A stretch of DNA of 64,000 nucleotides from an uncultured bacterium (lineage in GTDB: Bacteria; Fidelibacterota; Marinisomatia; Marinisomatales; UBA1611). Where the stretch lies: NCBI GenBank assembly GCA_965660855.1, contig CBFIBM010000009.1, forward strand, positions 15,588-79,587, given 5' to 3'. Position numbers and translations under genes: made by a program. Within the stretch, counting starts at the first letter, position 1; each line of letters starts with the position of its first letter. The notes below the pieces were generated by a model, which was not told the DNA's origin, searched no databases, and worked only from the letters and a program-made list of their open reading frames with translations. Shown piece by piece: positions 31,283 through 36,390 of the stretch.

Positions 31283-31531
31283 TTATTTTTGTCCATATTT
31301 TCTATTGAATTTTTCAATTCTTCCAGCCGTATCAACAAGATTTTGTTTCCCAGTAAAAAATGGGTGAGATTTATTTGAAATTTCTATTGTGCACAAAGGA
31401 TAATCATTCCCATCATCCCACTTTATAGTCTCTTTGGTCTCGACTGTTGAACGGGTTAGAAAAGTATGATCACAAGATGTATCTTTAAACACAACTAACC
31501 TATAATTCTTTGGATGTCCTTCTTTTTTCAT
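31283..31531 (-). CDS. rpmE: 50S ribosomal protein L31, type B (zinc-free)
   Basis: [35 protein letters not shown]; no CxxC pairs. Confidence 0.97.
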
Positions 31532-31534
31532 ATT

Positions 31535-32746
31535 TTATTCTTCCTTATTCTTCAATTTTTTTAAAGCAGTACTTACTCTTTTGATTCCATCTCTAATTAT
31601 CTTTGTGCTTGTTGCATATGAAAATCTTATATGCCCTTGAGCGCCAAAGCCATCACCTGGTACTGTAACAACTTTTGCAGAGCCCAGAATATACTCAGAA
31701 ATATCAAAAGTATCTTTCATTAACTTTCCCTCAAATAACATGCCCAAGTAATAACTAAAATCCGGGAAAACATAAAATGCACCACCGGGTAAGCGGCAAG
31801 TGACACCAGGGATATCATTTAATAAATCAACTATTAAGTCTCGTCTTTCTTTAAATGCCTCTTTCATGTCTTCAACACAACTTTGATCTCCAATTAAGGC
31901 TTCTATAGCTGCTTTTTGGCCTATAGAGTTAGCACATGAGGTCGCTTGCCCTTGAATTTTAGACATTGCTTTTATAATATCTGTTGGCCCTGCAGCGTAA
32001 CCTATCCTCCAACCTGTCATCGCATAGGTTTTAGATAAACTAATGCAGGTTACAACCTCTGCCAGTATATTATTTTCCCGGTTAAGTTTTTCAGTACTTA
32101 CAAACTGACCATCATAAACTAGTCTTTCATAACATTCATCAGAAATAATAGTCCAGTTATGCTTTTTTGCCAATCTTAATAATTTTATTATAGCTTCTTT
32201 TTCCCAAATTCCGCCTGTTGGGTTTGAAGGTGAATTAAGTATTACGCCTTTTATCTCAGGAGTGATCTTTTTTTCTAAATCTATAAAATCTGGTTCAAAG
32301 TTTTTTTCTGCTAATGTATCTACAAGAATTGGCTCTGCATCAGCTAAACGTACAAATTCAGGGAAAGAAACCCAATAAGGTCGAAATACTATGACTTTGT
32401 CTCCTTCTTCAAATAAAGCTTGGCATGCGTTATATAAACTTTGTTTTTCACCATTTGAAACTAAAATATCAGAGGGGTTATATGATATGCCGTTTTCTCT
32501 TTTCAGTTTTTCACAGATAGCTTCACGTAATTCAATCATTCCTGGACCGGCTGTATACTTTGTAAAACCATCATCCATTGCTTTTTTACCAGCCTCTATA
32601 ATATTAGAAGGAGTATTAAAATCTGGCTCACCTACTGAAAAGTTTATAACATCCATCCCCTTTGACTTCATGTCAGCTGCAATTGTAGCCATTTGTAACG
32701 TAAATGATGGCTTTACTTTATGTACTCTGTTAGAAAGTTTTGTCAT
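31535..32746 (-). CDS. PLP-dependent class I/II aminotransferase (aspartate aminotransferase-like)
   Basis: GEPDFNTP, NSPSNPTG, SDECY, SLSKTYAMTGWRIGY. Confidence 0.95.
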   Translation of the reverse strand: MTKLSNRVHKVKPSFTLQMATIAADMKSKGMDVINFSVGEPDFNTPSNIIEAGKKAMDDGFTKYTAGPGMIELREAICEKLKRENGISYNPSDILVSNGEKQSLYNACQALFEEGDKVIVFRPYWVSFPEFVRLADAEPILVDTLAEKNFEPDFIDLEKKITPEIKGVILNSPSNPTGGIWEKEAIIKLLRLAKKHNWTIISDECYERLVYDGQFVSTEKLNRENNILAEVVTCISLSKTYAMTGWRIGYAAGPTDIIKAMSKIQGQATSCANSIGQKAAIEALIGDQSCVEDMKEAFKERRDLIVDLLNDIPGVTCRLPGGAFYVFPDFSYYLGMLFEGKLMKDTFDISEYILGSAKVVTVPGDGFGAQGHIRFSYATSTKIIRDGIKRVSTALKKLKNKEE

Positions 32747-33777
32747 TAAAATTTATGCTGCTTTTTATGATGTTTTTCTGTGTTAAACTTGTAATCGTCT
32801 GACTCATCAATAACATCTGGTTTTAAATTTATGTTCACGGGTTCGTCATTAAAGTTTTTCTTAGGCTTTTTAGATTTCTTACTTTTATTTTTTTTAAAGC
32901 TTTTATCTTTATCAGAAATTTTTTGATTCTTGTTAAATTGATTTTTCCTTTTTGGTTTACGCTTTTTTCTTCTCTTTCTCTTTGGCTTAGGAACATCTAA
33001 AGCAGATATGACTTCTAGATCATTTTGGCTGTCAATTTCAAGCGGTTCCTGATTCATAGATATATTTTTTAATTCATCATCTCCAAAATTAAACTCATTT
33101 TTATTAAAAGCACCAAATATAGTTCCAAAACCTCTAGTTATTCCATTGCCAACACCAATATAGCTTGGTAAGAAAAAATTTGTTTCAAAGTCACCCATAA
33201 ATGCACCCCATTTATTATCATCGACAGACTTTGGGAAAAGACTTTCTAACGAGACTCTTGTATAAATACTATCTTTTAACTTAATTCCTAATTCATTAGC
33301 TAAAAAAATAATGTTTTGCCCAATTAGCTTATTAAGAAAAGATGGTTTTTCCTGGTTAGTTAAAAATCTATATTTCCCACTTGTCATATGATTGAGAGCA
33401 ACCCATGGTGTAATAAAACGGTACTTTAACAGCTTCTCAGATGGGATAAGCTGCTCTTTAGACTCTTGTTTATCAAATGATTCAACTTCAAAAGTAATGT
33501 TCCCGAAGTCAAAATTATCAAATTTTTCGGAGAGCTGAATAACTGGATCAACACCTTCTTTTATACCAATTATGTAAATTTGTTCATTAAGAATTTTTAC
33601 TTGAACTCTAGGATATAAAAATTTATCTCTTAGAGAACCATTAAGCATAGGAATTATACTCTCATCAGGAAATTGTCGCATAAAAACACCTTTTACTTGA
33701 TAAGGTGTTTTTCGAACAGGTTTATCTGTAACTACCCGCACTACTACTGATTTAATATCAGGAAAACTATCACTCAT
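32746..33777 (-). CDS. cas6: Orphan Cas6b-like RAMP protein with acidic and Lys/Arg-rich C-terminal tail
   Basis: Cas6b-type motifs YPRVQVK, YRFITPWVALN, GQNII, F-x-TNFFLPSYIG and G-loop GVGNGITRGFG (GhGxxxxxGhG with Arg) at aa 208-218; 123-aa tail. Confidence 0.82.
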   Translation of the reverse strand: MSDSFPDIKSVVVRVVTDKPVRKTPYQVKGVFMRQFPDESIIPMLNGSLRDKFLYPRVQVKILNEQIYIIGIKEGVDPVIQLSEKFDNFDFGNITFEVESFDKQESKEQLIPSEKLLKYRFITPWVALNHMTSGKYRFLTNQEKPSFLNKLIGQNIIFLANELGIKLKDSIYTRVSLESLFPKSVDDNKWGAFMGDFETNFFLPSYIGVGNGITRGFGTIFGAFNKNEFNFGDDELKNISMNQEPLEIDSQNDLEVISALDVPKPKRKRRKKRKPKRKNQFNKNQKISDKDKSFKKNKSKKSKKPKKNFNDEPVNINLKPDVIDESDDYKFNTEKHHKKQHKF

Positions 33778-33798
33778 TTAGAATTAATAATTAAAAAT

Positions 33799-35049
33799 TT
33801 ATTGACTCATAGTATCAAGGAACTCCGCATTTGACTTCGTTCTTTTCATTCTATCTTGCATGAAATCCATAGCTTCTTCTACTTTCATATCATTTAATAA
33901 CTTTCGCAAAACCCACATTCTACCTAACGTTTTACGGTCATGCAATAACTCTTCTTTTCTAGTACCAGAGCGAATAATATCAAAAGCAGGGTAGGTCCTT
34001 CTGTCACTTAAACGTCTATCAAGCACAAGCTCCATATTTCCCGTACCCTTGAATTCCTCAAAGATTACCTCATCTGCTCTACTACCAGTATCTATCAGAG
34101 CTGTTGAGATAATAGTCAAGCTACCTGCTTCTTCTGTATTTCTTGCTGCTCCAAAAAATTGTTTTGGCTTCTTTAAGGCATTAAAATCAACACCCCCAGA
34201 TAAAATTTTTCCACTATGAGGTGTTACTGCATTGTGAGCTCTAGCTAAGCGGGTTATGCTATCTAATAAAATAACAACATCATCACCATACTCAACCATT
34301 CGTTTTGCTTTTTGTAAAACCATATCAGCTACTGAAACATGTCTTTCAGGTGGCTCATCAAAAGTAGAACTTATAACTTCTGCATCTACATTCCTTTTCA
34401 TATCTGTTACTTCTTCTGGTCTTTCATCAATTAGAAGTACAATTCTTTTTGTTTCAGGATGATTTTTACTAATTGCATTTGCAAGGGTTTGCAATAGTAT
34501 GGTTTTACCAGTTTTAGGTTGTGCAACTATTAAACCCCTTTGGCCTTTACCTACCGGAGACATAAGATCCATTATTCTCATAGATAAATCTTTTGGGTCC
34601 GTTTCTAAATTGAACTTTTCTTCTGGATAAAGAGGTGTAAAATTTCCAAACAATATAATTTTTTTTAGATCTTCAAGTGGCTTATCATTAACTGTAATTA
34701 CTTTAAGCAACGCATAAAATCTCTCTTTTGATTTAGGTGGTCTAATTTGGCCAGATATTAGATGGCCCGTTTTTAAAGAGAACCTTTTAATCTGAGAAGG
34801 ACTAACATATATATCATCAGGACCAGGTAAGTAATTAAAATCAGGTGATCTTAGAAATCCATATCCATCTTGCATAACCTCTAACACACCTCTTGCTGAA
34901 AACGCACCCTGCTTTTTAGCATTTGCTTCTAAAATTTTGACTGTTAACTCTTGTTTATTAAGCCCTGCTACGCCACCTTCAATTTTCATTTTTTGAGCTA
35001 CTTCAGTTAACTCTCTAATACCAAGTGATTGTAATTCATTCAAATCCAT
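33799..35049 (-). CDS. rho: Transcription termination factor Rho
   Basis: [46 protein letters not shown]. Confidence 0.99.
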
Positions 35050-35127
35050 GTGATTTATACCTATATAATAAATTTGGAAATTTTAAAAATAAGCCCCGTG
35101 GAATGTCTGGGATTAGTAGAAATTACA

Positions 35128-36390
35128 TTAAATTATTCCACTGTCAAATGATAATTCAAACTCATTATAAACTTCCTTTGCTATATAATGTGTTCCAAAA
35201 ATTACTCCAATTTCATTATCATCATTAATTTTTTTTAAATATTTAATGCCCTCCTTAACAGATTTCAAAGGCTTATTTAAAATATTTTTTTGATTCAGTT
35301 TTTCTGATAATTCATATTTATCTAAAAGTAATTTTTCTCTATCAGTTACCACATAAATAATTGAAAAATTATCCCTTATTATATCAAATATAGGGTCCAA
35401 ATCCTTATCACCCTTTAATCCGAAAACCCCAAAAAGATTTTTATCAGAATAGATGTTTTTAAAATAATCTATCATCTTAGATATTCCTGAAAGGTTATGA
35501 GCGACATCGTAAAAAATAGAGGAAGATAATTTTTCAAGTCTTCCAGGCCATTTAATTTTACCAAAACCATTATTAATATTATGAGTTTTAATTTGTGGGT
35601 CAATAATTTTTAAAGATTCAATAGCAACAGATGCATTCTGAGCTTGATGAGCGCCAATTAATGCAGTTCTATAATGTGTATCTTTATAATCAAATTGAGT
35701 TCCTAATGGACCAATAATTATTTTTTTTGGTGAATTTGTTACTTTTAAAATTGAGCCTTTATTATTGGCCACTCCAGAGATAATCTTATGTACAGAGTTC
35801 TCTTGTTTGGAGATTACTATTGGAACTCCCTTTTTAATAATCCCTGATTTTTCATAAGCTATTTTTTCAAGTGAATCTCCAAGTATTTCCATATGATCCA
35901 TTGAGATTGGAGTTATAACTGAAATTTTTGGATTTATAACATTTGTTGAGTCTAATCGACCACCTAATCCAGTTTCAATAATTGCAATATCTACTTTTTT
36001 TTTTTTAAAATAATGTAAAGCCATTACAGTTGTTGTTTCAAAAAAAGTCGATTGAATTCTATGAATTGCTTCCCAATTATTATCTAAAAAAAGTTCTATC
36101 TCCTTATTCGAGATAGGAATACCATTTACTCTTATTCTTTCATTAAAATTAACTAAATGTGGTGATGTATAAAGACCTACTTTTTTACCCATCATCCTTA
36201 AAACAGATTCAATGTGTGCACTAGTTGAGCCTTTTCCATTTGTACCAGCAAGATGAATAAGGTACATATTATTTTGAGGATTCCCAGTTGAAAACAAAAG
36301 CTCTTTTGTATGATCTAGCCCTAGTTTTACTCCATGCCTTTCAAGTGCAAATAATGAATTTAAAGTTTTCGAAAAGTTAGAATAATTCAA
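35128..36390 (-). CDS. folC: Folylpolyglutamate synthase/dihydrofolate synthase
   Basis: GTNGKGS, YTSPHL, ETGLGGRLDSTN, WPGRLE, DVAHN. Confidence 0.97.
   Translation of the reverse strand: MNYSNFSKTLNSLFALERHGVKLGLDHTKELLFSTGNPQNNMYLIHLAGTNGKGSTSAHIESVLRMMGKKVGLYTSPHLVNFNERIRVNGIPISNKEIELFLDNNWEAIHRIQSTFFETTTVMALHYFKKKKVDIAIIETGLGGRLDSTNVINPKISVITPISMDHMEILGDSLEKIAYEKSGIIKKGVPIVISKQENSVHKIISGVANNKGSILKVTNSPKKIIIGPLGTQFDYKDTHYRTALIGAHQAQNASVAIESLKIIDPQIKTHNINNGFGKIKWPGRLEKLSSSIFYDVAHNLSGISKMIDYFKNIYSDKNLFGVFGLKGDKDLDPIFDIIRDNFSIIYVVTDREKLLLDKYELSEKLNQKNILNKPLKSVKEGIKYLKKINDDNEIGVIFGTHYIAKEVYNEFELSFDSGII

Follow-up and report, generated by a model that had tools for sequence, protein, structure and literature searches.

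The DNA analysed here (the window) is a 64,000-nucleotide (nt) stretch from an uncultured bacterium of the phylum Fidelibacterota, also known as Marinimicrobia or SAR406 (assembly GCA_965660855.1, contig CBFIBM010000009.1, positions 15,588 to 79,587). It carries, directly behind the gene of the transcription terminator Rho, a gene for a Cas6-like protein. From the end of rho, 21 nt lead to the ATG of the Cas6-like gene, whose stop shares letters with the start of an aminotransferase gene (aat) in the sequence TAATG (32744-32748); rpmE lies 3 nt behind aat (Table 1). An earlier reading of the DNA, made from the sequence only, had described this layout and proposed that the gene encodes an orphan, probably nuclease-dead Cas6b homolog built into the rho operon. 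All of its coordinates hold, including those of the motifs YPRVQVK (amino acids (aa) 55-61), YRFITPWVALN (aa 119-129) and TNFFLPSYIG (aa 199-208) and of the G-loop that follows them.

On sequence and fold comparison, the homology of the domain to Cas6b is far beyond chance. It had been claimed for aa 1-220 and spans residues 1-225. Hidden Markov model searches match both Pfam halves of Cas6b above their gathering cut-offs (E 7.6e-25 for Cas6b_C), and the PADLOC Cas6 model gives 138.7 bits, whereas the three scanned copies of the phylum that are linked to CRISPR reach 235-257 bits; a scan of NCBIfam assigned the protein to no family. Cas6b of Methanococcus maripaludis (4z7k) is the only solved relative found by sequence (E 5.2e-23, aa 27-221 against 22-216). 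An AlphaFold2 model of aa 1-232, made with 24 orthologs, reaches a mean predicted local distance difference test score (pLDDT) of 90.5 and a predicted template modelling score of 0.85. Foldseek places 4z7k_A first among the entries of the Protein Data Bank (E 9.4e-19, template modelling (TM) scores 0.76/0.81), and below it come further Cas6 proteins, some of them within type IV complexes, and one Cmr2-Cmr3 entry. Between classes of the phylum, at 28-45% identity, 14 residues are invariant, including Y119, P124, W125 and L128, and the G-loop glycines G210, G216 and G218 do not vary either. Both Pfam halves, the double RNA recognition motif (RRM) fold and the shared motifs are what the protein has in common with the M. 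maripaludis enzyme (4z7k/4z7l; PF17955, PF17262).

Table 1. Features of the rho region in the window (aa positions refer to the Cas6-like protein)
Feature	Position	Strand	Basis
Cas6-like gene, 343 aa, Cas6b-derived domain and basic tail	32746..33777	-	Open reading frame (ORF); Pfam Cas6b_N and Cas6b_C; PADLOC Cas6
N-terminal RRM-like half (aa 8-100), matches Cas6b_N	33478..33756	-	Pfam PF17955, 41.8 bits (gathering cut-off 25); model pLDDT >90
Former catalytic loop (aa 41-50, IIPMLNGSLR)	33628..33657	-	Alignment with 4z7k; comparison of 47 with 122 sequences
C-terminal RRM-like half (aa 113-220), with YxFxTPWxALN motif	33118..33441	-	Pfam PF17262 (Cas6b_C), 87.8 bits (gathering cut-off 39.4)
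G-loop GVGNGITRGFG (aa 208-218), glycines kept, canonical Lys at 211 replaced by Asn	33124..33156	-	Alignments
Tail (aa 226-343), mostly predicted disordered	32749..33102	-	Composition; model pLDDT
Conserved tail motif DLEVISALDVPKPKRKRRKKRK (aa 253-274)	32956..33021	-	20 family orthologs; pLDDT 66-72, short strand at 255-257
Conserved C-terminal motif KFNTEKHHKKQHKF (aa 330-343)	32749..32790	-	Near-identical in 20/20 family orthologs
rho, 416 aa, without insertion domain; sole invariant neighbour	33799..35049	-	ORF; locus comparison
Spacer of 21 nt between rho and Cas6-like gene, without predicted terminator	33778..33798	-	Terminator scan; bridged by RNA-library contigs in 2 runs
Upstream region of rho: promoter-like TTGACA-N16-TAATTT, short stem with C-rich loop (35094-35111), T-run	35078..35147	-	Conserved in 17 family loci
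Aminotransferase (aat)	31535..32746	-	Start overlaps Cas6-like stop (TAATG)
rpmE (ribosomal protein L31)	31283..31531	-	3 nt after aminotransferase

The position behind rho is kept throughout the phylum. It was found, on the same strand, in 20/20 loci of the window's family and in 18/18 deeper loci, with spacers of 9 to about 60 nt. A second set consists of named loci (the best 80 of 172 confirmed, all of this phylum) from a species-representative collection, and may share genomes with these 38 loci, so that the two sets are not independent; here rho lies within 200 nt upstream in 78/80. One of the two exceptions has no upstream DNA and the other has rho about 537 nt upstream by a rough measure. 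The linkage between rho and the Cas6-like gene, seen by the sequence-only reading at a single locus, is therefore a feature of all 38 loci of the first set and 78 of the 80 of the second. The gene aat lies downstream in 67/80 named loci, and the usual order is folC, rho, the Cas6-like gene, aat, rpmE, one more gene and prfA. This order is broken in two taxonomic families, which we designate by codes: in f26 a UbiA-family gene and dnaE come after the pair, and in f31 either lspA or a response regulator gene with tgt. Only the pair of rho and the Cas6-like gene is conserved where the other neighbours change. The spacer within the pair holds no conserved element, and a terminator scan found no terminator-like site in it; in these scans the promoter consensus gave 10 sites against 18.7 expected and the terminator search 3 against 1.9 expected, so that neither is informative. 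In two runs, metatranscriptome contigs (95-99% alike) span the rho junction of the Cas6-like gene (X1, 33451-34428; X2, 33292-33921), and its junction with aat is spanned in three (X1, X2 and X6). Gaps in the cover of the operon by contigs of X5 and X6 carry no weight as evidence.

What separates the protein from Cas6b is first of all its active site. In M. maripaludis Cas6b, according to passages of Richter 2012 (PMC3479195), H38 and H40 complement each other, almost no cleavage is left in the H38A/H40A double mutant, and the mutant Y47A is impaired. In the alignment with 4z7k, H38, N39 and H40 face P43, M44 and L45 of the window protein, Y47 faces F53 and Y49 faces Y55. The segment before YP, noted by the sequence-only reading as devoid of His, reads IIPMLNGSLRDKFLYP, and the single His of the domain (aa 1-225), H130, is not conserved. 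When 47 rho-linked or His-less sequences were aligned with 122 canonical Cas6b sequences, His stood at both catalytic positions in 93% of the canonical group and in 0/47 of the rho-linked clade; the pair is present in 0/80 named loci and is missing from all rho-linked copies examined. The clade has also replaced canonical K186 (92%), K211 of the G-loop (85%) and S158 (83%; window numbering). Its own residues are D18, G47, F158, G191, N211 and I213, and G47 and R50, both in the former catalytic loop, are clade-specific and nearly invariant. Common to the two groups are YP..Q.K, Y.F.TPW.ALN, N155, F.G.F..N...P and the G-loop glycines. Judged by these replacements, canonical cleavage of the Cas6b type has probably been given up. 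In one divergent rho-linked lineage, L042 (G080:C2), and in cluster P0142 the loop is shortened and reads ...LEDRHEHYPR.

Could the protein still cut RNA in another way? It might be an endoribonuclease with a non-His active site, for example R50 and other basic residues, that processes a housekeeping RNA and is linked to rho by co-expression only. Some Cas6 enzymes work without the canonical His, a crenarchaeal Cas6 is described as having an 'atypical active site' (PMC3652601), and the strong purifying selection on the domain described below, together with the near invariance of R50 and G47 in the old loop, would fit such an enzyme. However, all three residues with a measured effect (H38, H40 and Y47) have been replaced, as have K186, K211 and S158, and a search of the genome for repeated elements that might serve as substrates found none. 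We regard continued catalysis of this kind as improbable.

The gene is spread widely over the phylum. It is present in 60/61 sampled relatives, representing 32/33 genera, and among 301 genomes of the phylum a protein query finds it in 161 and a 24-sequence profile in 163. Within the window's order, all 114 sampled genomes outside family f12 carry it (the window's own uncounted), so its presence is not sporadic. Outside the window's order it also occurs in two more families of the same class, f19 (7/8) and f21 (9/10), and in several families of other classes (f22, f29, f31 and parts of f24 and f26), in forms of about 225-260 aa at 24-45% identity. A search counted 1235 homologs of the protein. 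Where public sources put a name to a member, it is Candidatus Marinimicrobia, Neomarinimicrobiota or Fidelibacterota in every case but one, a metagenome-assembled genome with the label Lentisphaeria. Fidelibacter multiformis, which is in culture, encodes a member (WP_400166801.1) in the same 90% cluster as P0124, which is nearly identical to the protein of the rho-linked locus L031, and the function can therefore be tested at the bench.

Profile searching and phylogeny agree on how the rho-linked copies relate to canonical Cas6b. A search of 1.84 billion cluster representatives, which carry no taxonomy, gave 1562 matches; among the best 150, which were inspected, the loop is His-less in all above about 200 bits, and nearly all at about 188 bits or less have H-x-H. 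A tree of 92 rows was built with IQ-TREE from 25 rho-linked and 7 CRISPR-linked sequences of known context and from cluster representatives, of which 21 were labelled rho-linked by score and motif and 39 canonical (every third of the remainder); six rows (fragments or with a long insert) and the near-duplicate P0007 were left out. In this tree, which is unrooted and whose representatives received their labels from the motif itself, a single branch with a Shimodaira-Hasegawa-like approximate likelihood ratio (SH-aLRT) support of 100 divides the rows into 46 that are rho-linked or His-less and 46 canonical ones. The CRISPR-linked copies from the phylum itself lie deep inside the canonical side, and on the rho-linked side the rows cluster by family code. 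The ratio of nonsynonymous to synonymous substitution rates (dN/dS) is 0.03-0.09 in the domain and 0.17-0.30 in the tail, the least saturated domain pairs giving 0.037 at dS 0.36 and 0.06 at dS 0.72, and none of the full-length rho-linked matches listed has a broken reading frame. The rho-linked gene appears to have a single old origin; it has descended vertically and is under purifying selection. A functionless, decaying remnant of a lost CRISPR-Cas locus might be suspected from the lost catalytic residues and from the loss of the gene in f12, but the intact frames, the low dN/dS, the confident fold and the conservation of 14 residues across classes refute this, and we reject the gene as a pseudogene.

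The gene is equally detached from CRISPR-Cas. PADLOC found no other cas gene among the 52 window ORFs of at least 110 aa, and a k-mer scan of all 81 contigs of the window's genome (a 2.09-Mb assembly, 84% complete) found no CRISPR-like array, as the sequence-only reading had stated for the 64 kb. In the same assembly there was no match to Cas1, Cas2, Cas7b or Cas5, and tblastn with Cas8b, Cas7b, Cas5b, Cas3b and the PD-DExK protein of a relative's type I-B system found nothing; no type I-B locus thus appears elsewhere in this genome at its 84% completeness. Cas1 is present in 59/301 genomes of the phylum, and because only 14/114 carriers in the window's order have it, the Cas6-like gene is independent of CRISPR-Cas. 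In f21 Cas1 occurs in 0/10 genomes and the Cas6-like gene in 9/10, and in f29 Cas1 occurs in 0/4. One genome, G056, holds a rho-linked copy and a separate full type I-B operon, in which a His-bearing second copy (243 bits on PADLOC Cas6, motif LIHNHL) heads the series cas6b, cas8b, cas7b, cas5b, cas3b. In G067, G070 and G075, matches of about 150 bits lie 6-9 kb from Cas1 and carry HNH. Second copies of this weak kind in relatives are genuine CRISPR genes, and the occurrence of canonical and rho-linked copies in one genome means that they are two distinct, coexisting genes.

These results bear on whether the protein might be an orphan but working Cas6 that matures CRISPR RNAs from arrays or effectors elsewhere in the genome. 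The name 'CRISPR-associated endonuclease Cas6', which NCBI gives to some members, and the incompleteness of an assembly in a setting where arrays often fail to assemble, would speak for it. Against it stand the rarity of Cas1 among carriers, the lack of Cas1, Cas2, Cas5, Cas7, Cas8 or an array in the own genome, the separate His-bearing Cas6b of genomes with type I-B systems, and the loss of the catalytic residues. Such a role in trans is rejected as highly implausible, and the public name on members of this family inflates CRISPR counts for the phylum.

Some genes beside canonical cas6b may be recorded here. The type I-B operon of G056 (L038:155-8719, G056:C38) contains, between cas6b and cas8b, two additional genes: a 161-aa ORF without a PADLOC match and a 379-aa PD-(D/E)xK protein of the PADLOC candidate family PDC-S02. 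In two other genomes (L039:355-876 and L040:684-1214) a canonical cas6b is followed by a protein of about 175 aa assigned to PDC-S05.

Fold, distribution, linkage to rho and loss of the His pair bear out the domestication of an orphan Cas6b, none of the checks run on the refuting conditions of the sequence-only reading went against it, and a non-CRISPR domestication is very probably what took place. We propose that an ancestor of the Fidelibacterota captured a type I-B-like Cas6b gene directly behind rho, and that the catalytic His pair would then have disappeared from the captured gene along with further residues of the active site, while the double-RRM fold, the G-loop glycines and the hairpin motif TPW were retained. 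It would since have been inherited vertically as the second gene of the rho operon, without dependence on CRISPR-Cas. RNA binding is quite likely to have been retained. The protein may still bind RNA without Cas6b-type cutting and act with Rho, its likeliest role being that of an accessory RNA-recognition subunit that would recruit Rho to particular transcripts or shield them. A functional partnership with Rho has, in our judgement, an even chance of being real, and the favoured explanation as a whole, a domesticated Cas6b serving as second gene of the rho operon and RNA-recognition accessory to Rho, is as evenly balanced.

Why prefer a mechanism that involves Rho? Gene pairs kept adjacent over large evolutionary distances tend to act together, and our preference follows from the long-kept adjacency, the retained RNA-binding scaffold and a weak pass in co-folding. 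Rho (29-row alignment) was co-folded with the full-length Cas6-like protein (29 rows). The interaction prediction score from aligned errors (ipSAE) was 0.49 (runs 0.47, 0.49 and 0.50; best of three controls 0.00), a weak band in which predictions are more often wrong than right unless there is a good prior; the partner had a pLDDT of 69 or more, and 47% or more of the contacts were common to the runs. In calibration, 116/157 solved complexes and 2/215 mismatched pairs reached the mark, and among those reaching it, scores of at most 0.60 were obtained by just 18/157 solved complexes and by both mismatches. The roles offered by the sequence-only reading (Rho cofactor, antiterminator or RNA chaperone) stay conjectural, with weak support from the co-fold with Rho.

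A second line comes from family f12. In its rho loci (L050 and L052-L056, from G125, G047, G132, G101, G093 and G225), rho is followed by aat at 0-10 nt in 6/6 genomes, which is a clean deletion of the Cas6-like gene. The Rho proteins of these loci (428-452 aa) carry, in 6/6, a K/E/N/S/P-rich low-complexity insert of 12-36 aa between the N-terminal helix bundle and the OB fold, a site at which 29/29 carrier Rho proteins have none. Gene loss and insert amount to a single evolutionary event, and the other non-carrier families have no insert. The insert may compensate for the lost gene. Insertion regions at the same place of Rho in other phyla (Bacteroides fragilis, Mycobacterium tuberculosis) are disordered and compositionally biased and raise RNA affinity, according to parts of PMC11347177. 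Like them, the Cas6-like protein is predicted to bring an RNA-binding module and a basic disordered tail; unlike them, it is a separate gene product with a folded Cas6 domain.

Several observations weigh against a role with Rho, or against the broader reading. The gene was not found in any of 30 genomes of the streamlined family f12 (about 1 Mb, same order as the window), in f17 (0/15) or in f30 (0/9), and it is patchy in f24, f26 and f28. Rho is present in all five non-carrier genomes checked, which means that the Cas6-like gene is dispensable for Rho, and Q7 is the only Rho residue that separates carriers from these five (at least 3/5 non-carriers). Adjacency may reflect mere co-expression, because the wider cluster also has rpmE, prfA and prmC; contigs from RNA libraries may hold DNA, and one that covers two genes does not prove a single transcript. 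With two canonical Cas6b lysines lost, one of them in the G-loop, RNA contacts may be altered or weaker. The two His directly before YP in G080 and P0142 (RHEH), unlike all other rho-linked copies, give some rho-linked members His near the old site. Finally, searches of the window and of its own genome found no RNA target.

Those searches included an Rfam scan of the whole window at gathering thresholds, with 0 matches, and 16-mer counts in the own genome, which showed no dispersed repeat-like RNA partner. A dispersed word, GGATTAAATGGATTTGGATA, was considered with its variants and rejected as a partner since it is coding, its reverse complement reading YPNPFNP. The word and its variants recur at many sites among 122 fuzzy matches (for instance in contigs C1, C3, C6 and C13). 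YPNPFNP is, we presume, the C-terminal sorting-domain motif of the type IX secretion system, and these words suggest a large repertoire of secreted proteins. Other repeated 16-mers of the genome, of the CAAGAAGAACAAAATC type (15 times) and the ATCCAGAGATAGAAGA type (8 times), look like tandem repeats and are probably coding.

Beyond the Cas6b-derived domain, the protein of the window has a tail of 118 aa with 34 K+R and 20 D+E, whose pLDDT is below 50 at aa 225-245, 282-329 and 340-343. Among the 20 family orthologs the first conserved motif has the consensus DLE[ST][IV]S..DVPKP[KR]R and the C-terminal one KFNTEKHHK[KR]QHKF; a further motif of these orthologs, GRVFSEEFDIE, is missing from the window copy. 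Tailed forms, of about 300-390 aa, are confined to the window's order, where the added tail with its conserved short motifs may supply further RNA or protein contacts.

A lysine-rich, disordered tail of this kind is found in many RNA chaperones, and one may ask whether the protein works as a general RNA chaperone, or binds RNA in association with ribosomes or translation, and is tied to rho only by position within an old housekeeping cluster. That the cluster (folC, rho, aat, rpmE, prfA, prmC) includes translation genes and that Rho shows no matching substitutions would agree with this. Yet in the broken clusters of f26 and f31 the gene stays by rho and not by rpmE, prfA or aat, the named loci keep rho upstream more often than aat downstream, and most of the phylum's copies have no tail. 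A general binder of this sort therefore seems to us rather unlikely, and we keep to the RNA-recognition accessory to Rho as the favoured explanation.

How does the gene compare with known cases? To our knowledge, the Cas proteins described outside immunity belong for the most part to multi-gene modules that are part of transposons or of other defence systems. A homolog from Pyrococcus horikoshii (3qjj), reportedly the subject of 'One RAMP protein binding different RNA substrates', is said to come from a CRISPR-bearing archaeon, to bind repeat RNA and to exemplify a Cas6 that binds RNA without cutting. The window protein resembles it in having a Cas6 fold without catalytic residues (fold match to 3qjj_A, E 1.3e-06) and differs in its lack of CRISPR context and in its Cas6 subfamily (TM about 0.5). 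The 3qjj protein is described as non-catalytic in an excerpt of PMC3902920. Passages of the review on CRISPR exaptation by Koonin and Makarova (PMC8730458) present a Streptomyces module, cas5-cas6-cas7-cas8 of type I-E origin with a STAND NTPase, that lacks Cas3, the adaptation module and an array. Both cases place Cas proteins outside adaptive immunity, but the Streptomyces module is multi-gene, Cascade-like and predicted to act in defence, whereas here a single Cas6 gene sits in a housekeeping operon; no such single-Cas6 case is mentioned in those passages. The words Cas6, Marinimicrobia, Fidelibacterota and synteny are absent from the paper on Rho diversity (PMC11347177), and full-text literature searches on Cas6 in Marinimicrobia, Cas6 and Rho, Cas6 exaptation, non-catalytic Cas6 and Fidelibacter multiformis turned up no account of the gene. 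From Cas6b itself the protein differs, then, by the missing His pair, F in place of Y47 and the replacement of K186, K211 and S158, by the absence of adjoining cas genes or arrays, by its fixed, vertically inherited position behind rho and, in the window's order, by the tail.

With the cutting residues and CRISPR partners lost and the position behind rho held phylum-wide, a part of an immune system has apparently been recycled for core RNA work. Here a single Cas6 has turned into a housekeeping gene under strong constraint, passed on vertically and coupled to Rho, the essential terminator, in a phylum that is among the most abundant bacterial ones of the dark ocean. If the protein works with Rho, it would be a new kind of Rho partner, a natural sequence-reading RNA module placed on termination; if it has no role with Rho, it would still be a clean case of an RNA endonuclease fold repurposed. 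A more specific idea, which we consider possible but doubtful, is that it serves as a dedicated specificity subunit of Rho, reading a defined RNA sequence or structure as Cas6 reads repeats. It would then, with the same reservation, make termination or anti-termination sequence-specific across the phylum and would be the first core transcription factor to have come from a CRISPR component. In the boldest version, the protein might stay bound to a small RNA and direct Rho by it.

Three further features of the window deserve mention. The stem in the conserved region upstream of rho has a consensus of 4 bp with at least one compensatory change per pair (-2.94 kcal/mol), and the element could be a 5' stabiliser, the terminator of folC or an attenuator of rho; with just 4 bp in the consensus, the stem is not claimed as a binding site of the Cas6-like protein. 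Inside rho, at 34351-34487, the depth of RNA-library contigs shows a spike of up to 692 in run X5, with many loose contig ends at 34394 and 34430-34434, which most likely represents the rho of other organisms over a highly conserved segment and is no feature of the gene. Far from the rho region, a 187-aa ORF on the minus strand (2222-2785) has a weak match to a Toll/interleukin-1 receptor (TIR) effector (27.4 bits, E 3.8e-07) that covers aa 22-61 only.

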